From the NCBI RefSeq assembly GCF_053078305.1, contig NZ_CP166879.1: a DNA stretch of 64,000 nt; one strand, given 5' to 3'. Each line of letters starts with the position of its first letter. Positions within the stretch are counted from its first letter, which is position 1. This document shows, one piece after another, positions 2,464-39,913 of the stretch. The position numbers were made by a program, and so were the translations under genes. The notes under the pieces are model-generated. The model searched no databases and was not told the DNA's origin. It saw nothing but the letters and a program-made list of their open reading frames with translations.

Positions 2464-3450
2464 TCACTTATTAAAATGCCCCCAACGGAAATACATGTCA
2501 CATGCCATCATAAAATCGTTATGCCAGAGGAATCGACAATAGAAAAAATAGTAAATTAAGCACGGTACATAGCAGAGTAAAAAATAGGCTTCAAACCAAA
2601 TCCGCCATTCCACAAGCGTTGCCAATACCGACACCAGCGTAATCCACATCACTTCAATAACCAGCAATATGAATAACCGAAGCCAAAGCGGCTTGGCAAA
2701 AAAGGTCGACAACGCATTTTCACTGGAGAAAAACAGATCGATTTCCTGCAAAAAAAGCCTGCCCAGAAAAGCGTACCGCCTGGAGAAGCGCAGAAAAAAC
2801 AGATTAATCGCCAACACTACGCCACAAAGAATGAGCAATGCAATTATCGATTTAAACGTTAACCACTGCCCCTCTATCACAAAAGAATCACTGTTACGCA
2901 ACGGGCTGATAGTAAGCAAGTTAACAACCGTTGAGATGCACACCGAAAGCAGCACATAGCGAGTCAGACTTTTATATTTTACTTTTTTCGCTACTGAAAT
3001 AGCGACCTGCTTGACATAACTGGTGCGGATCATCCGAAACAGCAGAAAGATGACCAACGGCCCAAGTAACGAAATCAGGAACAGCGCATATAACGAGGGT
3101 AGAAGCTGGTATAGCCCCCAACTCATTGCACTCAACATGATTAACGACAGAAATCCTGCCACCAGAGGTTGTGTAAGAAATAATTCTATTTTGTGGTTCT
3201 GCTTTTTCTTAAACCACGAAAAATCGATATTCTTCGTGACGCATTTATAAGCCCAGTACGCCTTGAGATCAAAAATAAAATTATACAGCACCAAGGCCAG
3301 AATCCCACTAACGACACCAATATCCTCTGATGGAAAAGTAAATCCTGCATTTTTCCAATAAAAGCCTATCAGAATAAGTCCAATAGCATAAATGTATATC
3401 AGACTTCGTTTATCCTGAAAGCGAATAAAAGTTAAATAATCAGGAATCAT
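2464..3450 (-). CDS. ycdU: Polytopic inner-membrane protein YcdU (328 aa)
   Basis: 328-aa highly hydrophobic ORF matching recalled YcdU; its ATG overlaps the stop of the upstream FabD-like gene (ATGA at 3447-3450). Confidence 0.8.
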
Positions 3451-4391
3451 TTGAATACCTTCGCATCACTAAATGCTTTACGACAATGCATAACTCGTTG
3501 CTGATCCACGCCAGCGAAATCATTTAACATATTCCCCAAATAGGGCTTATTACTTATTTCAAGGAAAGCTACCGAGGTTGGCATATTCAGAAATGTATCG
3601 AGAGATTCAGTCCATTTCACCGTATGAGTTAAGTGTAATGAGAGATTTTCTTTGATAATTGACGGAGCGACCTCGCTTTTTGCTGTTACGTTCATCAGAA
3701 CCTGATGCTCTGGCGAAGCGATATCCAGTCCGGCAAGATAATCGCGCATTGCCTGAACGCCGTCTTCCATCAAACGCGTGTGCCAGGCACCGCTCACACC
3801 GAGTTTAACCGGTTCGTATCCAGCGGCCATCAGCAGCGTGGCAAATTCATTCAACGCAGCCTGCGTTCCCCCAATAACCTGCTGGCGCGGCGTGTTATCA
3901 CAGCTAATATCCAGCGCAATGCCTGATTCCGTAATCATCGTCTGCAGTTGTTCGCGGTTGATGCCTTTAACCGCCAGCATTGCGCCTTTATTTCTCTGGC
4001 TTTCGTCATGCATCAGGCTGGCTCTGAAGTGAATCATGCCAAATAGCGTCTCAAGAGAAATAGCTCCGGCAGCGTAGAGCGCACTGTATTCACCAACGCT
4101 GTGTCCGCAGGACCCCACAACCGTTAAATTCTCAAGACGTTCACGGCACAGGGTATAGAGCGTTACATTAATTGCGGTCACCGCCAGTTGTTGTACCGTC
4201 GTTTGAATAAGGCGATTCATCGGCCCTTTCTGACACAGGCGACGCAGGTTCAGTCCGGAAATATCGCTGGCACAATCCCAGATATGTTTTGTACTGGCGT
4301 TGAGATCCCAAAGATCGCTGCCCATGCCAATAACCGGATTACCCTGACCGGCAAAAAGCAGTACTGTCGGTTGTGAAGCATTATTCATCAT
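3447..4391 (-). CDS. FabD-like malonyl-CoA:ACP transacylase (314 aa), intact counterpart of the K-12 ymdE fragment
   Basis: Acyltransferase GHSxG nucleophile motif (GHSVGE) and N-terminal FAGQG motif typical of FabD. Confidence 0.75.
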
Positions 4392-4401
4392 CTCTTTATC
4401 C

Positions 4402-5790
4402 TTATAGATAGTATTTAAAGCCCAAATAAAGGCCTAACGTGTCGCCAAAAAGCGAAAATTCAGAATACCGACTTCCCAGCGCGCTATAGCCACCGGCATA
4501 GGCTTCAAGCTGGTTACTGATAGCGCTGAGCGGCGTGGAATAATGCAGGCCCAGCAACGTGCTGCCATCAATGAGATTGACCACCAGCGAAGGCTGCAGC
4601 GTCGACTCTCCCGCCAGCGGCAGACTGGCCCAGGCGTTCAGATAGTGCTTACCCTGCAGCATCCCCTGATTGGCGGTATTGCTGATTTCTGAAGCCATCA
4701 GGTATTTGTAAGAATCAAATGCCTGATCCAGTGGCGCATAGCCGGTTGTGGTATTGAGGAAGTCAATTAACTCGCGCTGCTGACGCTGTTCAGCGCGCGA
4801 ATAACCCTCGCTCTGAAAGTAATACTCAACGCCAAACACGCTGAAATTATCACTGGTGTACTGCCCACCCAGCGCCAGCTCCACGCCGCTTTCATCTTTC
4901 GTTTCATAGAGCGAATCCGGAAACTGATATTCCTCGACCTGCGCCGTCTCATGGTGGGAAAGATGCCGCCATTGTTGGGAGCGGTGGTAGGCTGCGTCGA
5001 CATTCAGCGTCAGCTGCGGGGTGTAGTGATAACTGTCAGACAGCGCGAGTGACGGCGATGGTCCGAGCCGCACATTGACTGTCGGTGTGTGCTCACCAAA
5101 GCGATGATCGCTGTAGCTCAGCAGATAGGCTTCGTCGCTGTTTCCCTGCTGATTAGCAGACCAGTTGCCAGACGTCACATAGCGTTTGTCGATGGTGGCT
5201 AACTTCGGTATGACGCTCGCCGAAAACGCATAATCGCGTGTATCCAAGTTCATTTTTGCGCCCCACGATGACGCCTGATACGCCGATGTCATTTTGGGAT
5301 CGTGCAAACGTGTCGACTGGAATCCGGTGTAATAATGCGTTTGCAAATCAGAAGGTGAACGCAAAAAGAACATTCCTGACGGCGCGGCAAATTTGCCTGC
5401 TTCAAATTGAACGCTGTCCGAGGCGCTATAGACCAGACTGAGGCGGTTAATTAACGCACGTGTGCGGCTATCATCCGTTTCGAATTTCCCTGCGGGTTTA
5501 AGCGCATATTCGTTTATTCCATACAGATTGAGCTTAAGTTCCAGCGTATTGTCGATTATCGAACAACCGCTGTTGATGCCAATCCCCGCCTCCTGATAAC
5601 CGTTGTGACGTGTGTAGGGATTTTTGCCTGCAATCTGCCAGGCCGAAGCCTGTTTATTGACATAAGACACTTGCTCGTAAAGCGTCACATCGCTGTTTTG
5701 TGCCACCTCGTCACCTGACAGGCAATCCGCCTGTAGCGTCAACGGCAGCGCAACACACAGCAACGAAGAGATCTTCAGCCTGCGTTTCAT
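4402..5790 (-). CDS. Secreted protein, putative outer-membrane beta-barrel (462 aa)
   Basis: N-terminal signal peptide (MKRRLKISSLLCVALPLTLQA), Tyr/Gly/Ser-rich with alternating hydrophobic pattern, aromatic-rich C-terminus; stop overlaps next gene start. Confidence 0.4.
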   Translation of the reverse strand: MKRRLKISSLLCVALPLTLQADCLSGDEVAQNSDVTLYEQVSYVNKQASAWQIAGKNPYTRHNGYQEAGIGINSGCSIIDNTLELKLNLYGINEYALKPAGKFETDDSRTRALINRLSLVYSASDSVQFEAGKFAAPSGMFFLRSPSDLQTHYYTGFQSTRLHDPKMTSAYQASSWGAKMNLDTRDYAFSASVIPKLATIDKRYVTSGNWSANQQGNSDEAYLLSYSDHRFGEHTPTVNVRLGPSPSLALSDSYHYTPQLTLNVDAAYHRSQQWRHLSHHETAQVEEYQFPDSLYETKDESGVELALGGQYTSDNFSVFGVEYYFQSEGYSRAEQRQQRELIDFLNTTTGYAPLDQAFDSYKYLMASEISNTANQGMLQGKHYLNAWASLPLAGESTLQPSLVVNLIDGSTLLGLHYSTPLSAISNQLEAYAGGYSALGSRYSEFSLFGDTLGLYLGFKYYL

Positions 5791-6575
5791 TTCGCACCTC
5801 GCTGAATATACTCTTTGGTGAAATGAAACTCCGGCAGCGATTCCAGACGAACATCGCTGTACTCCATCACTGAATAGTTATTGCCGTGACGAACATCGGT
5901 AACGGTTATTTTCATGGGTCGCGTTTTCCCCAGCACCGGCTGGAAATCCTGATACAACACTTCTTTTATTAACTGGTCATCCTGCGAGTAATAGGCTGCC
6001 TTCCACGGGCGATTATCACCGTCTTTTTCAACGTAATAGATGACCTTCGGCCAGGTGATATCCGCCGATTTACGCACCAGCGCCAGCTTGTAACACTGCT
6101 TTTCAGCACACGTGACTTCCCCCACCAGGGTCGAGTCATAGGCATATTCAAAGTTAGTGACAATGACATCGCCGTTAGAGATTTGCCCAATTAATCTTTG
6201 TTGCCGTGAAATAGGCATAGGACGTCGCAGTTCCGGCGTGTAAAACCATAAATCGTACCAGTCGGAAAGCATGATTTTTCCTTTATCTCGCGGCGGATAA
6301 ATAAAACGCACCAGCGAGCGTGCATCCGCTTTTTCATTACCCTGCGGTTTCATAAAGCGCATGGAAATATCGAGGACCTGTTTATTCTCTGGCTGGGTTA
6401 CGCCCGCTTTATATTCCGTTACCGTCAGCGTGTAACGAAACGGTTTATTCGGCGAACGAATTTCGTCAGCGCGACGAATTATCTCCAGCGCCTTATTATC
6501 TGTGCTCGCCGCCTGAACGCACGACGTAGCGAGCCACAGGCAAGCAAACCACTTGCCGTAAAAAGCCATATTCAT
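5787..6575 (-). CDS. Periplasmic LolA-like lipid/lipoprotein carrier family protein (262 aa)
   Basis: Signal peptide followed by a soluble domain; placement between FtsX permease and OMP as in Lol-like modules; family assignment by composition and context only. Confidence 0.4.
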   Translation of the reverse strand: MNMAFYGKWFACLWLATSCVQAASTDNKALEIIRRADEIRSPNKPFRYTLTVTEYKAGVTQPENKQVLDISMRFMKPQGNEKADARSLVRFIYPPRDKGKIMLSDWYDLWFYTPELRRPMPISRQQRLIGQISNGDVIVTNFEYAYDSTLVGEVTCAEKQCYKLALVRKSADITWPKVIYYVEKDGDNRPWKAAYYSQDDQLIKEVLYQDFQPVLGKTRPMKITVTDVRHGNNYSVMEYSDVRLESLPEFHFTKEYIQRGAK

Positions 6576-6583
6576 AATTAGCC

Positions 6584-7894
6584 CTATGAGAATTTAAATG
6601 CGTCAGAAATATTCAACCGGGAAGCACGTAAAGCCGGTAACACAGAGGCGCCTGTTGCTGTCAAAATGGGTAATACCACCGTCACCCAAATCAATTCCGG
6701 GTTACTGGTTTTTATAAAGGCGGTATAGCCGATGGTTTGTCCCGGCGATGGCGGCATCGCAATACCATAAAGATTAATAATCCAGGCTAACACGCCCCCC
6801 ACCAGCAGGCTGCCGACTGCGCCAATCACACCAATAAAAATGCCTTCTGTCAGAAACAAGCGCGTGACGTGAAGCGGCTTCAGGCCTATGGCACGCAGAG
6901 TGGTAATTTCACGGGTGCGCTCAACAATGTTCATTGCCATCGAGTTGCCGATCATGAAGATGACAATCAGCGCAACAATCAGCTTGATGAAGAAATAGAT
7001 CCCCGATAGCAACCCTTCAACCTGTTGATAAAAGAGTGAAACATCACGCCAGTCTTTGACCACCAGCGGCAAATGATTGCGTTCGATAAATTGACGCAGC
7101 TTTGCGCTAAACGCCGCGGTGTCATCTTCTTTAAGCAGAATAAGCACTTTGCTGACGCCATCCGTACCCATCATGCGCTGCGCGGTGTCCAGCGGGATCT
7201 TCATCGCGACATCGTCATAATCTTTAATGCCTGACTCAAAAATGCCACGCAGTTTTAGCGACAATGCGCCCTGCCCGCCCGCCGTGTTGACCACCATCAC
7301 ATCCAGCCAGTCGTCGTATTTCGCATTCAACGTTTTCGCCAGGCCGCTGCCCAGGGTGATTTCATCACCTTTTACCCGGGAAAGGTCGCTCCCCGCGATA
7401 ATCTTATCGAACGATCCCAGCTTTAAAGCGGGCAATGGCTCGACACCCAGCGCAGAGAAATAGCTGGAGGTTTCGCTCTCGTAATGTGAAATTACGCCAG
7501 TAAACTCCAGTTGCCCGGAGAGCGTGGAAATATCCGTCGCCAGCGTCGGGTCCGACAAAATAGCTTTCTTTAACGCCGCATAATCGGCAATCAGGCTCTT
7601 ATTTTTATTCGACGTTTCAAAATAGTGCTGATTGTAAATCTGCACATGACCAATATTGGTACGAATCGTCTGCTCTTTCAGGATCCAGAAAGAGTAATCA
7701 ATAAATCCGCCATATAAAAAGATCGCCACACCACCCAATACAATAGCGGTTATGGTAGAAAAAGAGCGACGCTTGTGGCGAAAGAGATTCAAAAATGCAA
7801 ATTTGACATCTCGTGAATAAAACAGAACCTGATAAAACACAAAAAACAGGATCAGCAGCAGAACGCTATTAACAGCTAAAATTTCCCCGGACAT
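6584..7894 (-). CDS. ABC transporter permease, FtsX/MacB/LolC-like (436 aa)
   Basis: N-terminal TM helix, large periplasmic domain, C-terminal 3-TM FtsX-like domain (…IVERTREITTLRAIGLKP…). Confidence 0.7.
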   Translation of the reverse strand: MSGEILAVNSVLLLILFFVFYQVLFYSRDVKFAFLNLFRHKRRSFSTITAIVLGGVAIFLYGGFIDYSFWILKEQTIRTNIGHVQIYNQHYFETSNKNKSLIADYAALKKAILSDPTLATDISTLSGQLEFTGVISHYESETSSYFSALGVEPLPALKLGSFDKIIAGSDLSRVKGDEITLGSGLAKTLNAKYDDWLDVMVVNTAGGQGALSLKLRGIFESGIKDYDDVAMKIPLDTAQRMMGTDGVSKVLILLKEDDTAAFSAKLRQFIERNHLPLVVKDWRDVSLFYQQVEGLLSGIYFFIKLIVALIVIFMIGNSMAMNIVERTREITTLRAIGLKPLHVTRLFLTEGIFIGVIGAVGSLLVGGVLAWIINLYGIAMPPSPGQTIGYTAFIKTSNPELIWVTVVLPILTATGASVLPALRASRLNISDAFKFS

Positions 7895-8551
7895 TTACTC
7901 ACCTTTCATCAGCGGCAGCAGTACCTGGGTTAACTCTTCACTATCCCATTCTGGTACAACATTAAAATCCTGCGTCAGCGACTGCGCAAGCGCGGCGTTT
8001 TGCCCTTTAATTTGCGCCAACAACGCATTCGCGTGGGTGGTGTCCTTGCAGTGACGTAATGCGCGATAACGCATCGCCAGAATATGGTCGCGGATCGTTG
8101 TCGCCCATATCGCCGGGTCAGCCAGCATGTGTTCGGTGTCTTTGACTGTCACCACGCAACGCCCTGAATCTGCCGGTAAATAGGCATCTACGCGGGCGCG
8201 TAAATAGCGTACGCGTTGATTTTTCTCCTGCAAATCCACCGCTTCATCCAGCCAGAAAAAGCCGCTTTTGGCGTATTCTGAGGCATGGATAAAATCGTTT
8301 GTTGCCGCATAACCGTCCGCCTGACGCAGTAAGCCATAGGCGTAAAAAACCAGCGCCACCACATTGTGCCTGGCTTCATACTCTTTCTTTAACGCTTCGG
8401 TCAGCGTCGCCAGCGCGGCAGGCTGCGCCGGAAGCCCTTGTTGCAGAACCTGGTTAACGGCGTCGGGAGTTGCCGCGTAAATCTTCGGGGCCAAAAACGC
8501 CGCGTACAAAAAGACGCCGATAAGCAAAAATCCTTTATGCATCTGAGTCAT
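7895..8551 (-). CDS. Signal-peptide-bearing periplasmic protein of unknown function (218 aa)
   Basis: ORF with cleavable N-terminal signal peptide, Ala/Leu-rich helical composition; sits between the ABC ATPase and permease genes. Confidence 0.4.
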   Translation of the reverse strand: MTQMHKGFLLIGVFLYAAFLAPKIYAATPDAVNQVLQQGLPAQPAALATLTEALKKEYEARHNVVALVFYAYGLLRQADGYAATNDFIHASEYAKSGFFWLDEAVDLQEKNQRVRYLRARVDAYLPADSGRCVVTVKDTEHMLADPAIWATTIRDHILAMRYRALRHCKDTTHANALLAQIKGQNAALAQSLTQDFNVVPEWDSEELTQVLLPLMKGE

Positions 8552-9242
8552 GAATCAATACTCCATCCTGAATTTCAACCACTCGCCGCGCCCGCGCTTT
8601 TAATTCGCTGGAGTGCGTGGAAATAACAAATGTGGTGCCTGTCTGCTGATTAATCGTCAACAGCAGGTCCAAAATAGCCTCGCCGGTTGCCAGGTCTAAA
8701 TTTCCCGTCGGTTCATCGGCAATGACCACCATCGGTTCGTGGGCCAGTGCCCGGGCGATGGCGACACGCTGTTGTTGACCGCCCGATAATTGCCCAGGTT
8801 TGCGATCGCCAAAACCGCTTAATCCAACACTATCGAGATAATGCAGCGTCCGTTCAGTGGCTTCTTTTTTACTGAACTGACCATTAAGCACCAGTGGGAA
8901 ATAAACGTTATCGAAAACATTTAATACCGGCATAAGGTTAAAAAACTGAAAAATAAAACCCAAATGTTTTCCACGAATCACAGCCAACTGCTCTTCTGGC
9001 AGTTGGTTCAGTAATTTATTTAAAAATATCACCGTTCCGCTGGTCGGTTTATCAATACCCGAGAGAATATTCAACAGAGTACTTTTACCACTGCCTGACG
9101 GCCCACACAGTGCGAGAAATTCGCCTTTATTGATATCAAGATTAATGCTTTTAAGCGCATCAACCTTTCCTGCCCCAGCGCCATAACACTTATAAATATT
9201 GCTAAGCGAAATAGCGGGCAACGATTTAATAGTAGATTGCAT
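8535..9242 (-). CDS. ABC transporter ATP-binding protein (about 235 aa; start set at MQSTIKSL, ORF track extends to 9329)
   Basis: Walker A GPSGSGKST, ABC signature LSGGQQQRVAIARAL, Walker B VVIADEPT. Confidence 0.8.
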   Translation of the reverse strand: MQSTIKSLPAISLSNIYKCYGAGAGKVDALKSINLDINKGEFLALCGPSGSGKSTLLNILSGIDKPTSGTVIFLNKLLNQLPEEQLAVIRGKHLGFIFQFFNLMPVLNVFDNVYFPLVLNGQFSKKEATERTLHYLDSVGLSGFGDRKPGQLSGGQQQRVAIARALAHEPMVVIADEPTGNLDLATGEAILDLLLTINQQTGTTFVISTHSSELKARARRVVEIQDGVLIHDSDA

Positions 9243-9252
9243 ACGACTGTCG

Positions 9253-10206
9253 TTATCCTTCAAGGTATTCAAGGTCAAAGTAGTGATAACCAAACTGTTT
9301 ATCAGCAATGACCGTACGCATTTTTCCACCGGGCTGAATATGACGGGTTAAATAATCCATACTCAACGCGGGCGTCAGACAACCGCTTTCACCGTAATGG
9401 GCCACCAGGTCGATAACGCCAGCAGCAGGCCGGGACGGCATTTGTTGCCGTTCGCTGAAGGCCATGACATCAATATCCGTAGCATGCTGTGGCGCAGTGC
9501 CGGAATGATATTCCCCGCATTGCAGCCTGATGGCGCTCTCACGCTGGCTGAGAATAAAACAACCCACGCGTTCAACAGATAAATTCACCTCATCAGCGCG
9601 ACGGGGGAATAAACGCTTAGGCGGTTTACCCACATCCTCTTCAGAGAATACCAGTACCGGAATTGCCCGATAGGCAGCGCAAATCACCACGTTATCGAAT
9701 ACATCCCAGGCGAGATAATCCTGCGCCATACGCAGCGCCTGAACGAATGCCTGTTTTTCGCCGCGAATCTTGCAAGTCGGTTCCGTTATCGAAAACTTCT
9801 TAAGTAAATTCTTGGGAAGCGTATCAATAGTGGCGATATGCAGCGCACTGGAAATTTTTTCAAACGAACCGGATTCGCCCCAGGAATCGGCATAAATAAA
9901 TGCCGTGCGCGATTTCATTAACTTCATGCGCTCTTTAGTCGGCATTTGTTGTAATGCAGAATCGGTTACCTGCTCCATCGCCTCAAGGTAAGGCATATAT
10001 TGTGGATTACGGATCCGTTCCGGCGCATAAATATCGTTCTCAACGCCAAAGCGCTTCAGCCCCCAGCCATTAGCACGGGTGCCGTATAATCCCCTTTCGT
10101 ACATATGTGCTTCCCAGGCGTTGAGCCAGGTCGGCTGATAAAAATAAAAAATGTCGTCCGGTTCCGTAAGCGCCCAGGAAGACAGGTAGATACTCTTTTC
10201 CGTCAT
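9253..10206 (-). CDS. Hypothetical protein (317 aa) within the lipid biosynthesis cluster
   Basis: ORF tightly packed between the KS-like gene and the ABC ATPase gene; no motif I can assign confidently. Confidence 0.4.
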   Translation of the reverse strand: MTEKSIYLSSWALTEPDDIFYFYQPTWLNAWEAHMYERGLYGTRANGWGLKRFGVENDIYAPERIRNPQYMPYLEAMEQVTDSALQQMPTKERMKLMKSRTAFIYADSWGESGSFEKISSALHIATIDTLPKNLLKKFSITEPTCKIRGEKQAFVQALRMAQDYLAWDVFDNVVICAAYRAIPVLVFSEEDVGKPPKRLFPRRADEVNLSVERVGCFILSQRESAIRLQCGEYHSGTAPQHATDIDVMAFSERQQMPSRPAAGVIDLVAHYGESGCLTPALSMDYLTRHIQPGGKMRTVIADKQFGYHYFDLEYLEG

Positions 10207-31745: not shown

Positions 31746-32423
31746 TGCTCCTTATGAGTAAGTAATATTTAAGGTGTAATTTAAGTAATTTTTAGATTTC
31801 AATAAAAAACTAAACGTATAAAACTCAGCATGAATAATAAACATCAAATCTTATATATTTTTAAGTAGTGATGCATCACGTAAAAAATATAGTCATCATA
31901 GATGTTATGCAGTACGCACAAAAAAAACAGGCTGGAATTGCTTGCTGATTTATAATCTTTATCTAAATTACTATTGGCGCTTTGGATAATAACATAAGCA
32001 TATATTACCTCCTAGCAATAATAGAGATAACCTCATATCAAGGTGTCACTGGTAAATAATCGGATAAAAGACAGTATCGGTCGGCGCATAGAGCTTCTTC
32101 TATTTCACCAGAAGTGCACAGCAGGAACTACCAATCACACGGTTAGTGTCATGGGTGGAGGATGCGGCCCGTTCTTTCCCTATAACAGGGTTACGCAGTT
32201 TCAATCAGTACATGCAGAAAAACCCCTAATTCACATCACTGCAGAAAGCATTTAATAGAAATATACATCGTTTAAGAATTTCAATTAAATCAAGATTATT
32301 CTTAAAAATCAGATAATTCACATTTGCATTTTTAGGAAATTATACTATAGTGCACTTAATGTTCTTGCCTTTATTTTCTGAGTAATACTGGATTTGTAAT
32401 ACACAACTAAGGTATAAAATGTA

Positions 32424-33236
32424 ATGATCTACATTATAAATGATGAAGTAAGATTCAACTCATCATCTAATAAGTTAACATCACTCCTTACATCAGAGGA
32501 AGTGATACTCACTTATCCTGCGGGAAAATGCTTAAAGTTACTTTTAGATAACGCTTATAGTGTCGTGTCACACAATCAATTCTTTGAAAAAGTCTGGAGC
32601 GATAGCAGTGCCGAAGTCGCAACCAACACTTTATATCAAAATATATCGATGATAAGACGTTCTTTTCGTGAAATCAGCTCAGCGACGATATTTAATGATG
32701 TTATCAGAACGGTGCCCCGTAAAGGCTTCAAAATCAATGAAGAAATCAGCATAACTGTTCTCGACAATAATCACAATGAGAATGAAAGTGTTGAGAGTGA
32801 AGAGAATGGTACCCACACTGAAAATATAAATAAAAATCACATTGCAAAAGGTATATTTACCACAAAGAATACATTGCTTATAGTTTGTTTTTTTGCGGCA
32901 TGGGGGATAGTGTATATATCTTCTTATTTTTTCGATATGGCTTTTCAAAGCAAATCCCACACTATAAAAAAAATAGATGCTTTCTCAAATTATGCTCAAC
33001 ACCCTACTCAGGAAGGATGCAGTTATTTCTATGATAATAAATACTTTAATTCCGTAGACATGTTATCACCGATTATTGAAAAATTGCAGAAGATGGAAAT
33101 TAACTGCAAAATACATCCTTACATTTACATTGCAACAAATGATAGCATGAGCGGATTTTATGCTTTCACCTGTAGTCAGATGTTAAACTCTGAATCACCA
33201 AATAATTGCAACTCTCTCTATTATAAAGCGGAGTAA
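32424..33236 (+). CDS. ToxR/CadC-like membrane-anchored transcriptional regulator (270 aa)
   Basis: N-terminal OmpR/PhoB-type winged-helix segment (…FEKVWSDSSAEVATNTLYQNISMIRR…TVPRKGFKI), one TM helix (LLIVCFFAAWGIVYISSYFF), periplasmic C-terminus; AT-rich. Confidence 0.6.
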   Translation: MIYIINDEVRFNSSSNKLTSLLTSEEVILTYPAGKCLKLLLDNAYSVVSHNQFFEKVWSDSSAEVATNTLYQNISMIRRSFREISSATIFNDVIRTVPRKGFKINEEISITVLDNNHNENESVESEENGTHTENINKNHIAKGIFTTKNTLLIVCFFAAWGIVYISSYFFDMAFQSKSHTIKKIDAFSNYAQHPTQEGCSYFYDNKYFNSVDMLSPIIEKLQKMEINCKIHPYIYIATNDSMSGFYAFTCSQMLNSESPNNCNSLYYKAE

Positions 33237-33240
33237 TCAT

Positions 33241-33732
33241 ATGACTCAAAGATATTTTCTGTTTGCGGGAATAATTTTATGTGCTTTTATTGCAGCAATT
33301 CTGAGCCATATTGCGTTTCATCATGCCAATGAACCAGCAGAGCAAAACATATCATGTAATGCCCATGTTATTAATTTCACCGATCATACAAAAATGGATC
33401 AATATTTTTCGTTAAATATGATTTCTGAAAATAACACAGGAAACATGTATCTCACGGGCGCATACACGGTAGATGGAAAAAAGATGGGCTTCATCCGCCG
33501 ATATGTGAGTTTTACATACAAGAAATTCCGTGATACCGTTTACTTCACCACTGTTAAAATACAAAAAATACAAAAAGATGATAACATTAGTGATGAAATC
33601 CTTGAAAATATCACTTCTGATTTTTTCATAAAAGTAGACACCTCAATTAATTTTTATGTTACACGTCAAAATGATTACAACTACGTATTCTCTACAGGCA
33701 GGACACCACGCTTCATATGTATTTCCCACTAA
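33241..33732 (+). CDS. Small membrane-anchored periplasmic protein, possible ToxS-like partner (163 aa)
   Basis: Single N-terminal TM helix then soluble domain; start 5 nt after the ToxR-like gene stop. Confidence 0.4.
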   Translation: MTQRYFLFAGIILCAFIAAILSHIAFHHANEPAEQNISCNAHVINFTDHTKMDQYFSLNMISENNTGNMYLTGAYTVDGKKMGFIRRYVSFTYKKFRDTVYFTTVKIQKIQKDDNISDEILENITSDFFIKVDTSINFYVTRQNDYNYVFSTGRTPRFICISH

Positions 33733-33833
33733 CAGCATTGTTGCTTCTGGCGTTTGTCACCAGTTAATAACCTTCTGATGGCTTTGTTTATATTTTAAGG
33801 CAATAAAAAACCATTCCAATATTGGTTAATTAT

Positions 33834-35444
33834 TTATCTGTTTACATACCATTGATAAAACTCTGTCGCTTTCATTGGTTTTGCATATAAGTATCCCTGA
33901 ACTAATGTCACGTTATTATGAATAAGATATTCCGCCTGGTGAGGAGTACTGACACCTTCTGCAATCGTTATCAAATTGAGTCGATTACTCAGCTTAATAA
34001 TAATATCTAAAACTGGCGTTTCGTCTTCCGCTGTAGTGAGTGTGTCTATAAAGCTTTTATCTATTTTAAGATAATCAACAGACAACTTTTGCAGAAGGCC
34101 AAGGGAACAATATCCCGTGCCAAAATCATCAACTGCAAATTCACAGCCATGGATCCTTAATTCATTTATTTTCTGTAATGCAAGATCAGTATCTTCAACC
34201 AGATTGCGTTCGGTAATCTCAAGAACAATGTTAAATTTATCAGATATTTCATTTTTAATATGTAAAACATCAGCAACAAAATCAGGATGTGCAAGATGCT
34301 CCGCGGCAATATTTATCCCAAGGTGAAACGGCTTTTTCACTTTCCAGCTTTGTACATCCTGAATAATCAGTTCAAAGAGATGCTTAGTTAACGGTATAAT
34401 TAAATTTTCCTCTTCTGCAGCGCGGATAAAAACTACCGGAGATATATTTTTACCATCTTCGCGTTGCCAACGCATTAACGCCTCAACCCCCAGACACGCT
34501 TTGGTTGTCGTGTCACATACTGGTTGATAATGCACAGAAAATTCTCCGGATGACATTCCTTTCTTAATTTCTTCTGCCAGGGACATTTTCCGAGATATCC
34601 AGCGCTGCCATAAGAAGTACAGAATAAAAGAAAGAAGAATAGATAATGGAAGAATGTAAAATACATTACTAATGACATAGGGATATAATGAAATCATCGG
34701 CGTAGTAACTGTAAGACTAGCCTGACTGATCGCAGAATTAAAATCTTTTTTTAACATATATAACTTGTCATTATTATTTACACCACTAATAATTGCAGGC
34801 CCTTCAGTAAAGCTAAGAGAAAATGAATCATCATTCTCATCATCAAGAACATCCATCAGATCATAGATATATCGTGACTCTACAATACTAAAAGCTGTCA
34901 TATCATTCCCTATTGGCATAAGGAACACTATGGCTGTTTTACCTGGTACAAAACTTGTACCGCTAATTGATACTATGCGTGATTCTTTATTTTTATTGTG
35001 AAAGCTCGTACCGTAAACATCGTTAACATTCATTTTTTTGAAACCGCTAACTGAAGAACATATTTGGAAATTATTTTCTATAAGCCCCGTTGTTCGAACA
35101 TAGGGGGTCAATGCTCCGTTAGCAATCAATTGTTCCAGGATATCTTTGCAGGGTTTCATCACCAGAATAGAAGTAAGCTTTGTCGTATGTTTTACAATTT
35201 GCGTAACATTATCAAGCTGTTTTAACAGAATACCGGCGGTAATTGTCGTATCTCGATTCATTTGAAATACTGACATAGCAAACGACAGTAACACCCCCAG
35301 AATGCCTGGTATTATAATGAGTACAAACATTTTTTTGTTGAATACCATACATGTTTCCCCACGCATCAGGGTGATGCAACCTAAGAAATTATAGTACAAT
35401 TGCCAGTAAAAGCGGGTGATAGCAGACTGATCAATGATAAGCAT
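33834..35444 (-). CDS. Membrane-bound EAL-domain c-di-GMP phosphodiesterase with periplasmic sensor domain (up to 536 aa; start possibly at 35348)
   Basis: Two TM segments flanking a periplasmic domain; cytoplasmic EAL domain with EALMRWQ and downstream DDFGTGYCSL motifs. Gene symbol left blank because equivalence to the O157 vmpA gene is only from memory. Confidence 0.75.
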   Translation of the reverse strand: MLIIDQSAITRFYWQLYYNFLGCITLMRGETCMVFNKKMFVLIIIPGILGVLLSFAMSVFQMNRDTTITAGILLKQLDNVTQIVKHTTKLTSILVMKPCKDILEQLIANGALTPYVRTTGLIENNFQICSSVSGFKKMNVNDVYGTSFHNKNKESRIVSISGTSFVPGKTAIVFLMPIGNDMTAFSIVESRYIYDLMDVLDDENDDSFSLSFTEGPAIISGVNNNDKLYMLKKDFNSAISQASLTVTTPMISLYPYVISNVFYILPLSILLSFILYFLWQRWISRKMSLAEEIKKGMSSGEFSVHYQPVCDTTTKACLGVEALMRWQREDGKNISPVVFIRAAEEENLIIPLTKHLFELIIQDVQSWKVKKPFHLGINIAAEHLAHPDFVADVLHIKNEISDKFNIVLEITERNLVEDTDLALQKINELRIHGCEFAVDDFGTGYCSLGLLQKLSVDYLKIDKSFIDTLTTAEDETPVLDIIIKLSNRLNLITIAEGVSTPHQAEYLIHNNVTLVQGYLYAKPMKATEFYQWYVNR

Positions 35445-35541
35445 TTAAGATCATATAGTACTATGATATTTCTGAAAATTGTTACGCATGTCTGCGAATA
35501 GCTATTTAGCGCTTACCAAAATCACCCGCTAAAATGCCGCT

Positions 35542-36900
35542 TTATGGTGACTCACAAAAATTCACCACATCCCTCACAACCACCTTATTACGCCCGGTCT
35601 CTTTCGCCTCGTATAGTGCGTTATCAGCCAGTCGATAGATCTCATTCGGGTTTAACGCATTTCCCTGAGTCACAACAGCGCCAATACTAATCGTCACTTT
35701 TTGTGGTATGGCGTATTCAGGATTATCACCAGTTAAACGCTCAACATTTTCCCGAATCCTTTCCGCTAAAGCTTTCGCACGTTCAGTATCGATGTCCGTC
35801 AGCAAGACGCCAAACTCTTCGCCGCCGACGCGCGCAAAAAGGTCATCTGGCCGTATGCTTTTCCCAATGATATTCACCACTGTTTTTATCACCTGATCGC
35901 CAATCGGATGCCCCCAGGTGTCGTTGACTTTTTTGAAGTGGTCGATATCCATAAGCATGACGCAATAAGGCGTTTTTTTGGCCGATGCTGATTGAACCGT
36001 CAGTTCATTAAAAAAATAATTTCTGTTAAATATATTGGTTAAGGGATCGCGATGTGCAATGTCCTTTGTTACTCGTAGCGCACTGAATATATGGCACATA
36101 AATATTACCATAACGGTTAACTTACTGACTACTTCAATAGTGCGACTAATATACCAAATGGACACGCTATACCTGCTCATAAATAAAAGAGAGACATTGT
36201 ACAGTACGGCACAAAAAGCAATCACCGTCACTCCATTCCAGATATCATAGCGTAAACCATTAAAGTATAGATTAACCGAAAGCAAGGTTAACCACATGAA
36301 AATCATTATGGTAACATATGAAGCTTTCCAAACCACTTGACCATTTTCATTGGTTAACTCGGCAATGTGTAAATCGTAGCTCTCATAATGGCTAGAAAGT
36401 ATGTGAGCAACTATCGGCCCCCCAAGAACAAAAAACAAACTTATGCACAAAGTCATTTTTTTGGAAAATAAATTGCGCTGTTTTGTGTTTTCACTAACTT
36501 TATTCACCAATGCCAGAAATATTAATATGCACAAACTCATCTGACGAAACAAATAATAAATTGCAATGTCATTTTGAACAACACTGCTTGTCAAACGCCC
36601 CTCAATCATTTGCTGAATGATAATGACGGTTTTAACAAAGTAAATCAAACAACTCAGAAAAGCCAAACTAAGTATACAGTTTGAAAATTGCCTACGGTCA
36701 TAAATGAAATACAACTGCATAAAAATAAATGCAACAGTATCGATAAAAAATAAAGCAATCATTACCATCAGATAGGTTGATAGTGGAACAACCTCCTCAA
36801 CGCCTGGCTGATTAAACCAACTATTCACCAAAACCAAAGCAAGCCCAAACAATAAGCTCACTAAGACAGTACTACTAATTCTCAAATAGTCTTTTTCCAT
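35542..36900 (-). CDS. dgcT: Membrane-anchored diguanylate cyclase DgcT/YcdT (452 aa; ORF track extends 41 codons upstream)
   Basis: Multi-TM N-terminal domain plus GGDEF domain (RVGGEEFGVLL); N-terminus MEKDYLRISSTVLV matches recalled YcdT; divergent from pgaA. Confidence 0.85.
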   Translation of the reverse strand: MEKDYLRISSTVLVSLLFGLALVLVNSWFNQPGVEEVVPLSTYLMVMIALFFIDTVAFIFMQLYFIYDRRQFSNCILSLAFLSCLIYFVKTVIIIQQMIEGRLTSSVVQNDIAIYYLFRQMSLCILIFLALVNKVSENTKQRNLFSKKMTLCISLFFVLGGPIVAHILSSHYESYDLHIAELTNENGQVVWKASYVTIMIFMWLTLLSVNLYFNGLRYDIWNGVTVIAFCAVLYNVSLLFMSRYSVSIWYISRTIEVVSKLTVMVIFMCHIFSALRVTKDIAHRDPLTNIFNRNYFFNELTVQSASAKKTPYCVMLMDIDHFKKVNDTWGHPIGDQVIKTVVNIIGKSIRPDDLFARVGGEEFGVLLTDIDTERAKALAERIRENVERLTGDNPEYAIPQKVTISIGAVVTQGNALNPNEIYRLADNALYEAKETGRNKVVVRDVVNFCESP

Positions 36901-37249
36901 AAAGCTACACCAACCTGTAGGTTGTAGATCCCTTTCTATTATTAATAGATATAAGAACTGTACAGTTGTCAATATGAAAACCCACTCACAAACAATACCG
37001 ATGATGATAGTTGCAGGCCGCAATTATTATTACCTTAGTGCTTTATACATTCTTTGCGACAAGACAGGCTTGCAAATATTTATAAATGGTTATAAGGAAA
37101 TCCTTATAAAACATTCATTCATAGATATATTAGGAATAACAATTGAATCCGTGAGTACAGTAACGCTGCATTTCATCAGGACTTTCGAAAAATCCGAAAT
37201 CATGCATCGGAATTTACTGATTTAATTATTTTACTCCTAATTTATTTTG

Positions 37250-37489
37250 AAAAAGGCATTGGGATTTATGCCGTATTCCTGAAGATCCTCATCATTGGAA
37301 TGGATTTTCGGGCGAGAAAAGGATTTTATATGGACACTCTGCTCATCATTTCTTCTTCTCATCATCAACAATTCACGTCTCTCTTCCGCGTTTAATAACG
37401 GATTATGAGGTGCAAAAAAATATCTTTCTTTTCAGTTACCTGTCATTAGATACAGAGAGAGATTTTGGCAATACATGGAGTAATACAGG
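37250..37489 (+). promoter_or_regulatory. pgaA 5' leader region with multiple GGA motifs (candidate CsrA-binding sites), one overlapping the SD/start (acaggatgt)
   Basis: GGA motifs read directly (cattggaatggatttt, aaaaggatttt, ataacggattatgagg, catggagtaatacaggATG); CsrA control of the pgaA leader is established for K-12. Confidence 0.5.
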
Positions 37490-39913
37490 ATGTATTCAAG
37501 TAGCAGAAAAAGGTGCCCGCAAACCAAATGGGCTTTGAAAATTCTTACTGCCGCATTTTTAGCAGCGAGTCCCGCGGCGAAGAGTGCCGTTAATAACGCC
37601 TATGATGCATTGATTATTGAAGCTCGCAAGGGAAATACTCAGCCAGTTTTGTTATGGTTTGCACAAAAATCAGCACTCAGTAATAACCAAATTGCTGACT
37701 GGTTACAGATTGCCTTATGGGCCGGGCAAGATAAACAGGTTATTACCGTTTACAACCGCTACCGTTATCAGCAATTACCAGCGCGTGGTTATGCAGCTGT
37801 CGCAGTCGCTTATCGTAACCTGCAACAATGGCAAAACTCGCTTACACTGTGGCAAAAGGCGCTCTCTCTGGAGCCGCAAAATAAGGATTATCAACGGGGA
37901 CAAATTTTAACCCTGGCAGATGCGGGTCACTATGATACTGCGCTGGTTAAACTTAAGCAGCTTAACTCTGGAGCACCGGACAAAGCCAATTTACTCGCAG
38001 AAGCCTATATCTATAAACTGGCAGGGCGTCATCAGGATGAATTACGGGCGATGACAGAGTCATTACCTGAAAATGCATCTACGCAACAATATCCCACAGA
38101 ATACGTGCAGGCATTACGTAATAATCAACTTGCTGCCGCGATTGACGATGCCAATTTAACGCCAGATATTCGCGCTGATATTCATGCCGAACTGGTCAGA
38201 CTGTCGTTTATGCCTACGCGCAGTGAAAGTGAACGTTATGCCATTGCCGATCGCGCCCTCGCCCAATACGCTGCATTAGAAATTCTGTGGCATGATAACC
38301 CTGACCGCACTGCCCAGTACCAGCGTATTCAGATCGATCATCTTGGCGCGTTATTAACTCGCGATCGTTATAAAGACGTTATTTCTCACTATCAGCGTTT
38401 AAAAAAGACGGGGCAAATTATTCCGCCCTGGGCGCAATATTGGGTTGCGTCGGCTTATCTCAAAGAACATCAGCCAAAAAAAGCACAGTCAATAATGACA
38501 GAGCTCTTTTATCACAAGGAGACCATTGCCCCGGATTTATCCGATGAAGAACTTGCGGATCTCTTTTACAGCCACCTGGAGAGTGAAAATTATCCCGGCG
38601 CGCTAACTGTCACCCAACATACCATTAATACTTCGCCGCCTTTCCTTCGGTTAATGGGCACGCCTACGAGCATCCCGAATGATACCTGGTTACAGGGGCA
38701 TTCGTTTCTCTCAACCGTAGCAAAATATAGTAATGATCTTCCTCAGGCTGAAATGACAGCCAGAGAGCTTGCTTATAACGCACCAGGAAATCAGGGACTG
38801 CGCATTGATTACGCGAGTGTGTTACAAGCCCGCGGTTGGCCTCGTGCAGCAGAAAATGAATTAAAAAAAGCAGAAGTGATCGAGCCACGTAATATTAATC
38901 TGGAGGTTGAACAAGCCTGGACAGCATTAACGTTACAAGAATGGCAGCAGGCAGCTGTCTTTACGCACGATGTTGTCGAACGTGAACCGCAATATCCTGG
39001 CGTTGTACGTTTAAAACGTGCGGTTGATGTACATAATCTTGCAGAGCTTCGTATCGCTGGCTCAACAGGAATTGATGCCGAAGGCCCGGATAGTGGTAAA
39101 CATGATGTCGACTTAACCACCATCGTTTATTCACCACCGCTAAATGATAACTGGCGCGGTTTTGCTGGATTCGGTTATGCCGATGGACAATTTAGCGAAG
39201 GAAAAGGGATTGTTCGCGACTGGCTTGCGGGTGTTGAGTGGCGGTCACGTAATATCTGGCTCGAGGCGGAGTACGCTGAACGCTTTTTCAATCATGAGCA
39301 TAAACCCGGCGCGCGCCTTTCTGGCTGGTATGATTTTAATGATAATTGGCGTATTGGTTCGCAACTGGAACGCCTCTCTCACCGCGTTCCATTACGGGCA
39401 ATGAAAAATGGTGTTACAGGCAACAGTGCTCAGGCTTATGTTCGCTGGTATCAAAATGAGCGGCGTAAGTACGGTGTCTCCTGGGCTTTCACTGATTTTT
39501 CCGACAGTAACCAGCGTCATGAAGTCTCAATTGAGGGTCAGGAACGCATCTGGTCTTCACCATATTTGATTGTCGATTTCCTACCCAGTCTGTATTACGA
39601 ACAAAATACAGAACACGATACCCCATACTACAACCCTATAAAAACGTTCGATATTGTTCCGGCATTTGAGGCAAGTCATTTGTTATGGCGAAGCTATGAA
39701 AATAGCTGGGAGCAAATCTTCAGCGCAGGTGTTGGTGCCTCCTGGCAAAAACATTATGGCACGGATGTCGTCACCCAACTCGGCTACGGGCAACGCATTA
39801 GCTGGAATGACGTGATTGATGCTGGCGCAACGCTACGCTGGGAAAAACGACCTTATGACGGTGACAGAGAACACAACTTATACGTTGAATTCGATATGAC
39901 ATTCAGATTTTAA
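37490..39913 (+). CDS. pgaA: PGA export porin PgaA (807 aa)
   Basis: Matches recalled PgaA (MYSSSRKRCP..., TPR-rich N-terminal domain, beta-barrel C-terminus). Confidence 0.9.
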   Translation: MYSSSRKRCPQTKWALKILTAAFLAASPAAKSAVNNAYDALIIEARKGNTQPVLLWFAQKSALSNNQIADWLQIALWAGQDKQVITVYNRYRYQQLPARGYAAVAVAYRNLQQWQNSLTLWQKALSLEPQNKDYQRGQILTLADAGHYDTALVKLKQLNSGAPDKANLLAEAYIYKLAGRHQDELRAMTESLPENASTQQYPTEYVQALRNNQLAAAIDDANLTPDIRADIHAELVRLSFMPTRSESERYAIADRALAQYAALEILWHDNPDRTAQYQRIQIDHLGALLTRDRYKDVISHYQRLKKTGQIIPPWAQYWVASAYLKEHQPKKAQSIMTELFYHKETIAPDLSDEELADLFYSHLESENYPGALTVTQHTINTSPPFLRLMGTPTSIPNDTWLQGHSFLSTVAKYSNDLPQAEMTARELAYNAPGNQGLRIDYASVLQARGWPRAAENELKKAEVIEPRNINLEVEQAWTALTLQEWQQAAVFTHDVVEREPQYPGVVRLKRAVDVHNLAELRIAGSTGIDAEGPDSGKHDVDLTTIVYSPPLNDNWRGFAGFGYADGQFSEGKGIVRDWLAGVEWRSRNIWLEAEYAERFFNHEHKPGARLSGWYDFNDNWRIGSQLERLSHRVPLRAMKNGVTGNSAQAYVRWYQNERRKYGVSWAFTDFSDSNQRHEVSIEGQERIWSSPYLIVDFLPSLYYEQNTEHDTPYYNPIKTFDIVPAFEASHLLWRSYENSWEQIFSAGVGASWQKHYGTDVVTQLGYGQRISWNDVIDAGATLRWEKRPYDGDREHNLYVEFDMTFRF

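Follow-up and report, generated by a model that had tools for sequence, protein, structure and literature searches.

A five-gene module with a PF17131 carrier and an orphan outer-membrane barrel as a probable envelope-export pathway of a type II FAS/PKS-like cluster in Escherichia coli

The DNA that was analyzed is a stretch of 64,000 nucleotides (the window) on contig NZ_CP166879.1 of assembly GCF_053078305.1; all positions refer to the whole window, one strand, 5' to 3'. At 4402-9242 it carries five consecutive open reading frames (ORFs), all on the minus strand, which probably encode an envelope-spanning pathway dedicated to the product of the surrounding biosynthetic cluster. This cluster is of the type II fatty-acid synthase/polyketide synthase (FAS/PKS)-like type. 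The inferred export of the product by the module is well supported by the gene context, and one may reasonably assume that the module draws a hydrophobic product out of the inner membrane for delivery to the outer membrane or the cell surface. An earlier reading of this stretch, in the following called the original prediction, had placed five consecutive genes here and had located them within a biosynthetic cluster. The ORF calls and translations reproduced its coordinates exactly, and ketosynthase genes were indeed found upstream of the module and the genes for FabD and YcdU downstream. The gene order that it had given has to be corrected, as the gene for the periplasmic protein of 218 amino acids sits between the genes for the ATP-binding cassette (ABC) ATPase and the permease, not behind the permease. 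In the order of transcription, i.e., ATPase, protein resembling tetratricopeptide repeat (TPR) proteins, permease, carrier and barrel, the genes are:

8535..9242, minus strand: ABC ATPase, nucleotide-binding subunit of the LolD/MacB (type VII) class, 235 amino acids, ATG at 9242
7895..8551, minus strand: secreted all-alpha TPR-like protein (predicted), 218 amino acids
6584..7894, minus strand: FtsX/MacB-type permease, 436 amino acids
5787..6575, minus strand: soluble periplasmic carrier of the LolA superfamily, PF17131 (predicted), 262 amino acids
4402..5790, minus strand: 18-stranded outer-membrane beta-barrel (predicted) of an orphan family, 462 amino acids

The ATG at 9242 is also the start chosen for the ATPase by the NCBI Prokaryotic Genome Annotation Pipeline (PGAP). 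The genes for the ATPase and the 218-amino acid protein overlap by 17 nt, the latter directly abuts the permease gene (TAA, then ATG), permease and carrier are separated by a gap of 8 nt, and carrier and barrel share a 4-nt ATGA overlap. These tight junctions fit with the five genes being part of a single translationally coupled operon; the flanking genes on both sides of the module are 10 nt distant. A consensus scan for promoters and terminators inside the module gave signals at chance level and is thus not informative on a splitting of the operon. The existing annotation of the five genes, by PGAP and in matching genomes, is generic: two are given as subunits of an ABC transporter, one as a "lipoprotein-sorting protein" and two as hypothetical proteins.

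Co-inheritance is what speaks most strongly for a role of the module in handling the product of the cluster. In every complete locus examined, from about 20 genera, the five genes co-occur with the cluster, and 24 of the 24 complete loci have an identical order of 13 genes, from the FabZ-like gene through ycdU. The FabD gene follows the barrel gene in all loci, and YcdU is the end of the cluster in 24 of 24. The complete loci include representatives of Enterobacter, Kosakonia, Mixta, Klebsiella, Leclercia, Serratia, Rahnella and Izhakiella, and also of Silvania, Tenebrionibacter, Buttiauxella, Acinetobacter, Neisseria, Utexia and Aeromonas. Three more, short contigs have kept the block of carrier, barrel and FabD. 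The association extends to distant metagenomic variants with barrel identities of 20-27%. In these the genes for the ATPase, the homologue of the 218-amino acid protein (hhalign probability 98.5-99.8%) and the permease form a contiguous triad, and the genes for the PF17131 protein and the barrel adjoin the same genes for the ketosynthase fusion, the GcvT-like protein and FabD. In one distant variant the gene order is reshuffled, with all five components retained. The barrel family itself is small, i.e., 86 clusters were found in a collection of 5.8 billion proteins (all with at least 41% identity), 56 matches among 1.84 billion representatives, and members in 21 of 100,044 species genomes.

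The original prediction had further described a cytoplasmic ATPase with Walker and signature motifs, an FtsX-type permease with a large periplasmic domain, two proteins with signal peptides and a putative barrel, and all of these features were recovered. In the ATPase, Walker A (residues 47-54), the Q-loop, the signature LSGGQ (152-156), Walker B (VVIADE, 172-177) and the H-loop are intact, and with these catalytic motifs the protein is predicted to be the cognate ATPase of a type VII ABC transporter. The best NCBIfam match was LolD (TIGR02211, E=7.8e-68), with a score of 228.3 bits, which is below the curated cut-off of 307.75; also for NF008639 the score of 209.5 bits missed the cut-off of 360. 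The models for YbbA, DarD, MacB and FtsE score almost as high as that for LolD. The protein is 42% identical to LolD of E. coli, and the nearest solved structures are those of MJ0796, LolD, YbbA and MacB.

The permease matched MacB_PCD (PF12704, residues 44-268, E=7.9e-9) and FtsX (PF02687, residues 302-429, E=3.2e-17), and its periplasmic domain comprises about 230 amino acids. Five hydrophobic segments are present, at residues 5-23, 47-65, 295-313, 352-370 and 401-419. The last four are the core helices of a type VII ABC permease, with the MacB-type core between transmembrane helices 1 and 2 and the FtsX domain at the C-terminus. The first one, at residues 5-23, is an extra N-terminal helix that is kept in all orthologues. 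After it comes a strongly basic stretch (within residues 1-43; gene at 6584-7894, minus strand), which predicts a topology with the N-terminus outside and five helices, unusual among FtsX/MacB permeases. Over its full length the permease is 32-36% identical to two FtsX permeases of Nitrosomonas eutropha (BLASTP, E=1e-58 and 3e-53); the alignments to the Nitrosomonas relatives start only past the extra helix, which is apparently absent there. The identity to LolC and LolE of E. coli is 21-23%, and the score against the LolC/LolE model TIGR02212 is 92.4 bits, far from the cut-off of 362.

The third component that could be assigned to a known family is the carrier. It matched PF17131 (LolA_like / TP_0789-like) with E=5.6e-36 (residues 84-259, model positions 2-184 of 184), and it also matched a solved structure, PDB 3BUU ("LolA superfamily protein NE2245"), with E=5.9e-34 (residues 29-259 versus 9-227). 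The LolA-like fold on which the original prediction depended is thus supported by near-full-length homology to a solved member of the LolA superfamily. In a Pfam scan of the carrier at E<=10, PF17131 was the sole match, and LolA (PF03548) was not found. N-terminal alignments of the orthologues revealed a signal peptide and no conserved lipobox cysteine, so that a soluble periplasmic carrier without a lipid anchor is predicted; a lipoprotein status was judged unlikely. In Bacteroidetes there are iron-regulated operons in which PF17131 genes occur together with those for MMPL and ABC proteins.

The remaining two proteins, of 218 and 462 amino acids, had no match in sequence searches of Pfam, NCBIfam and PDB. 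For both, homologue alignments were built and the structures were predicted. The 218-amino acid protein appears to be all-alpha and TPR-like in the predicted structure. Its gene is always located between the genes for the ATPase and the permease. No match to an adaptor of the HlyD family and no membership in a TPR family at the sequence level were found for it. Signal peptides are present not only on the 218-amino acid protein and the carrier, but also on the barrel protein, and all three have in addition conserved cysteine pairs as they are typical of periplasmic proteins. Such pairs are C132/C168 in the 218-amino acid protein and C23/C76 in the 462-amino acid protein, in which C23 is nearly invariant and lies just past the signal peptide. 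Together with the signal peptides they indicate that both proteins are located outside the cytoplasm. A lipoprotein status of the 462-amino acid protein was judged unlikely, the residue before C23 being D or H in most orthologues.

The barrel fold of the 462-amino acid protein, also a premise of the original prediction, is backed by the predicted structure, a high-confidence model of an 18-stranded barrel (pLDDT 86, pTM 0.83). The periplasmic turns comprise 3-7 residues and the outer loops are long. By its signal peptide and the modelled barrel of 18 strands with short turns and long outer loops, the protein is predicted to be of the OprD/Occ-AlgE class. A Foldseek search of the model against AFDB50 retrieved, outside its own family, mainly proteins annotated with "Alginate export domain". 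The sequence identity to the structural neighbours is 6-11%, and no Pfam porin or alginate-export family was matched, even at E<=10. The idea that the barrel is a divergent DUF1302 protein (PF06980) was rejected at the sequence level, because the hhalign probability against the DUF1302 protein of N. eutropha was 0.1% and no Pfam match was found.

What is directly supported comprises the identities of the genes, the predicted folds and localisation signals, the structure of the operon and the co-inheritance with biosynthetic genes. From these a working model can be drawn that also covers the substrate, the direction and order of the hand-over, the stoichiometry, and what the TPR-like protein and the extra permease helix may do. 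A homodimer of the one FtsX/MacB-type permease would be driven by two copies of the ATPase. As in other ABC transporters of type VII, this permease would act at the periplasmic side of the inner membrane and pull the amphipathic product from the outer leaflet or the periplasm. The product would then be passed to the soluble PF17131 carrier and be shielded while it crosses the periplasm. At the outer membrane the 18-stranded barrel would accept it and either insert it there or release it. The TPR-like protein may serve as a periplasmic scaffold or adaptor that links the permease to the carrier, or the carrier to the barrel, as AlgK does for AlgE. YcdU may have a role in anchoring or flipping the product.

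The cluster and its surroundings were characterized by profile searches, annotation and ORF translation. The genes outside the module are:

16889..17257, minus strand: holo-acyl carrier protein synthase (acpS), first cluster gene (annotation)
16114..16875, minus strand: FabG-like ketoreductase of the short-chain dehydrogenase/reductase (SDR) family (profile search and annotation)
15562..16110, minus strand: FabZ/ApeI-like dehydratase (profile search)
15259..15540, minus strand: acyl carrier protein (ACP) (ORF, annotation, PP-binding domain in orthologues)
14063..15223, minus strand: GcvT-like protein of the aminomethyltransferase family (NF001567, E=1.6e-39, below cut-off)
11431..13989, minus strand: fused two-domain ketosynthase, 852 amino acids (TIGR03150, E=1e-135, residues 6-398; second ketosynthase domain)
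10203..11426, minus strand: divergent third ketosynthase-like protein (weak ketosynthase matches; annotated as beta-ketoacyl synthase)
9253..10206, minus strand: conserved protein of 317 amino acids directly upstream of the ATPase (conserved in all loci)
3447..4391, minus strand: FabD-like malonyl-CoA:ACP transacylase, full-length form of the K-12 remnant ymdE (TIGR00128, E=1.7e-52)
2464..3450, minus strand: YcdU, multi-pass inner-membrane protein, last cluster gene (annotation; about 8 hydrophobic segments)
17273-18892, minus strand: ShlB/FhaC-type transporter (two-partner secretion)
18981-20645 and 20703-22793, minus strand: filamentous-haemagglutinin-like gene, split into two ORFs (frameshift annotated in matching genomes)

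The order in the operon is therefore acpS, SDR ketoreductase, FabZ-like dehydratase, ACP, GcvT-like protein, ketosynthase fusion, third ketosynthase-like protein, 317-amino acid protein, the five module genes, FabD and YcdU. In the ketosynthase fusion, the N-terminal domain is FabF-like, and the Cys/His/His motifs could be read from the translation, while the C-terminal domain is chain-length-factor-like and the active-site cysteine is missing. The 317-amino acid protein had no match in Pfam, NCBIfam or PDB; all copies of the cluster have it (48-66% identity), and in one genome it is annotated as "ATP-binding protein". Also for YcdU no real Pfam family match was obtained, nor did NCBIfam and PDB yield anything of use. 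Among the cluster proteins searched, no enoyl reductase or thioesterase was matched, and the same was true for adenylating enzymes and for glycosyl- and acyltransferase families. As no enoyl reductase was found, an unsaturated or polyene-like acyl compound is a plausible product, as far as can be judged from the gene content. The biosynthetic core (10203-15223, minus strand) is unusual in its make-up and has weak similarities to the models for AmcF and AmcE of cispentacin. Immediately upstream of acpS are the two-partner secretion genes (17273-22793, minus strand). The cluster copy of the unrelated bacterium Utexia is also flanked by two-partner secretion and ShlB genes (L004 13779-21371), which could be due to chance or to a functional link.

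The window is part of an E. coli chromosome, with ycdX, ghrA and tRNA-Ser(GGA) at its start and pgaABCD, efe, put and rut genes further along, and the cluster lies on an island between dgcT (ycdT) and ghrA. At 32001-38000 the G+C content is 34-39%, compared to about 50% elsewhere in the window; by collinearity with strain ETEC6335 this region probably contains genes for an SDR protein, a ToxR-type regulator (GrvA-like) and a small hypothetical protein, an EAL-domain gene and dgcT. The island corresponds to O-island 47 of O157:H7 EDL933, z1528-z1556 (PMC8565820). In the searchable literature on O-island 47 only regulators were found to be discussed; nothing on the genes of the module and no functional study of them came up. 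The EDL933 genome paper of 2001 reportedly lists a "polyketide or fatty-acid biosynthesis system" on this island.

Of 5426 complete E. coli genomes, 382 carry the complete module with an identity of >=95% over >=80% of its length. The distribution of ycdU is much wider (2662 of 5426 genomes, versus 389 for the transport module), and K-12 and many other strains retain only the cluster tail ymdE'-ycdU. The operon closes with FabD and YcdU in each of the 24 complete loci, which stem from other genera, and in K-12 the truncated FabD-like pseudogene ymdE and ycdU appear to be what is left of the 3' end of the cluster. Both have been noted as uncharacterized genes enriched in E. coli from bovine mastitis (PMC4951805). 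In two carriers of the module the biosynthetic genes are damaged. Strain ES5 has lost the segment from acpS to the GcvT-like gene and its FabD gene is frameshifted, and in strain ETEC6335 the ketosynthase fusion is frameshifted. The five transport genes are intact in both strains and 100% identical to those of the window.

The original prediction had called the architecture Lol/MacB-like. The resemblance is real, while membership in either group is not given. A true Lol system was rejected because the cut-offs for LolC, LolD and LolE are missed and the five proteins include neither a PF03548 carrier, the carrier here being PF17131, nor a match to LolB. A MacAB-TolC pump was rejected because the module proteins comprise no membrane-fusion adaptor and no TolC-type duct. 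The module shares with LolCDE-LolA-LolB the LolD-class ATPase, the FtsX permease with a MacB-type domain, the soluble carrier of the LolA superfamily and the lack of an adaptor, and by analogy it may also share the logic of extraction from the inner membrane, periplasmic chaperoning and delivery to the outer membrane. In contrast to the LolC/LolE pair, the module has a single permease gene, implying a homodimer, and its permease has the extra N-terminal helix. Instead of LolB it has the barrel and the TPR-like protein, and the presumed cargo is a small molecule or a lipid and not a lipoprotein. The canonical lolCDE genes are present elsewhere in such genomes.

At the sequence level the closest relatives are loci of Nitrosomonas and Nitrosospira with FtsX-ABC, PF17131 and DUF1302 genes (permease 32-36%, 3BUU E=6e-34). 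N. eutropha (L035 654-9657) encodes the NE2245 orthologue together with two FtsX permeases, an ABC ATPase and a DUF1302 barrel, and Nitrosospira lacus (L036 1-9544) has the NE2245 orthologue, two FtsX permeases, a DUF1302 barrel, an Acetyltransf_5 protein and a glycosyltransferase. The outer-membrane barrels of these loci have 480-560 amino acids, and lipid-type enzymes adjoin them. They differ from the module by their two permease genes, by the DUF1302 family of the barrel and by their neighbouring enzymes; no homologue of the 218-amino acid protein and no TPR-family gene was called in them. In both nitrifiers the NE2245 orthologue is accompanied by a gene of Acetyltransf_5, the family of the synthases of N-acyl amino acids and ornithine lipids, and this neighbour suggests a lipid cargo for NE2245 (3BUU). 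On the basis of these similarities, the ABC transporter and the carrier seem to belong to a wider family of PF17131-based modules, in which the present, non-homologous barrel would occupy the position of DUF1302.

Several other systems have partly similar components. In aryl-polyene (APE) clusters, the LolA-like ApeL, the LolB-like ApeN (DUF3261) and ApeM, a transporter of the resistance-nodulation-division (RND)/MMPL type, have been proposed to move lipid outward to the outer membrane (bioRxiv 10.1101/2020.12.19.423268). APE clusters are likewise type II PKS-like, build an unsaturated acyl chain on an ACP and have built-in proteins of the LolA superfamily. Their energizer is of the RND type and not ABC/FtsX, however, the carrier is of a different family, the outer-membrane partner is a LolB-like lipoprotein instead of a barrel and a TPR-like protein, and the ketosynthase fusion and the GcvT-like protein are specific to the present set of biosynthetic genes. 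A type VII ATPase with an FtsX permease is also found in MacAB-TolC, DevBCA and the DarBCD of darobactin, and those that are embedded in clusters handle the cluster product. In contrast to these exporters, neither an adaptor of the HlyD family nor a TolC duct is encoded here, the modelled barrel is porin-like, monomeric and 18-stranded, and the soluble carrier suggests a shuttle, not a continuous duct. The polysaccharide that AlgK-AlgE, PelB, BcsC and PgaA export is made by a synthase of the inner membrane, and the TPR unit of these portals takes the form of a lipoprotein or of a fusion to the barrel, whereas the TPR-like protein of the module is small and soluble, has its gene between those for ATPase and permease, and was not assignable to their type at the sequence level. 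Finally, sets of DUF1302, DUF1329 (LolA/LolB-like), BNR and RND proteins also combine a large barrel, a periplasmic protein of the LolA superfamily and an energized inner-membrane transporter. Mutant cofitness has led to the proposal that they export envelope components (bioRxiv 10.1101/072470), and their function is still debated. All component families differ from those of the module, the energizer is of the RND type, and there is no tie to a biosynthetic cluster. Taken together, export modules of the Lol-like or type VII ABC kind are already known as built-in parts of lipid or polyene clusters. The novelty lies in the composition: the carrier is a PF17131 protein, LolB or TolC is replaced by an orphan AlgE/OprD-like barrel, the TPR-like partner is also an orphan, and the permease has an extra helix.

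Some observations weigh against a pathway that takes a hydrophobic product to the outer membrane. The nearest structural relatives of the barrel (Occ/OprD, ChiP, AlgE, Wzi) conduct hydrophilic solutes or polysaccharide and are not known as lipid inserters, a LolB-like acceptor is lacking in the module, and an experimentally shown ligand was not found in the searchable literature for any PF17131 protein. The protein-protein contacts within the module are conjecture, and judging from the deletion and the frameshifts, some E. coli strains have a decaying cluster, which may be inactive in part of the carriers. The open solute and polymer channels among the barrel relatives (OprD/Occ, ChiP, AlgE) would fit better to an efflux or self-protection pump that secretes a diffusible small molecule, like DarBCD, with the barrel as exit channel, the PF17131 protein as binding protein and no insertion into the outer membrane. 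The nearly equal scores of the ATPase against DarD, MacB and LolD are compatible with such a pump. We nevertheless regard it as rather unlikely, as the adaptor and TolC-type duct used by tripartite pumps of the MacB type were not found, the LolA-superfamily carrier suggests a cargo that is shielded from water, and the acyl chain is built on an ACP with no thioesterase detected among the proteins searched. OprD/Occ and ChiP are uptake channels, and DUF1302/DUF1329 genes are located in catabolic clusters for hydrophobic compounds, so that uptake or recycling of an external hydrophobic precursor or starter unit via the Occ-like barrel was also considered. It is generally known, however, that transporters of the FtsX/MacB type are mechanotransmitters that expel or extract substrates at the periplasmic face, with no import through the inner membrane, and an importer-type substrate-binding protein is missing in the cluster, which makes this direction of transport very improbable.

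A private Lol-like system for sorting a protein or lipoprotein encoded by the cluster, possibly the 462-amino acid protein itself, is suggested by the name of the PF17131 protein in databases, "outer membrane lipoprotein-sorting protein". The near invariance of C23, a canonical L-L-A-G-C lipobox in one orthologue and the label "Lipoprotein" that one source gives to an orthologue of the 462-amino acid protein point in the same direction. A D or H before this cysteine, as in most orthologues, does not fit a lipobox, though, and a disulfide with the conserved C76 is the simpler reading. In addition, beta-barrels are, as is general knowledge, inserted by the beta-barrel assembly machinery and not by Lol, canonical lolCDE is already in the genome, and no other clear lipoprotein candidate is encoded in the cluster. 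Such a sorting function is thus hardly to be expected. The decay seen in ES5 and ETEC6335 and the mere ymdE'-ycdU tail of K-12 and many other strains would also be in accordance with an inactive relic of a horizontally acquired cluster in E. coli, which is compatible with the other explanations. We consider this improbable for the present locus, as the ORFs of the window from acpS to ycdU are intact and have full length compared to the orthologues of other genera, and the module is complete at high identity in hundreds of genomes. Export of the cluster product by a dedicated pathway therefore stays the preferred explanation.

A more specific version, for which we have tentative confidence at most, is that the module is a new route for lipids to the surface, in which a PF17131-linked extractor with an extra helix, the shuttle, a TPR adaptor and an orphan AlgE-like barrel lead to the insertion of a polyene-like lipid into the outer leaflet and its display. 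If this were true, the end-point at the outer membrane would be unlike LolB, LptDE or TolC, and two orphan protein families would receive their first functions. A known cargo is lacking for thousands of "lipoprotein-sorting" proteins of PF17131; here the cargo is identifiable because the biosynthetic genes are attached. The cluster would also explain the K-12 genes ymdE and ycdU as a leftover tail. A surface lipid would be present on enterohaemorrhagic E. coli O157:H7 and on many gut- and insect-associated Enterobacterales, including Enterobacter, Klebsiella and Kosakonia, and, if the module exports it, it would be a part of a major pathogen's envelope that has escaped examination.

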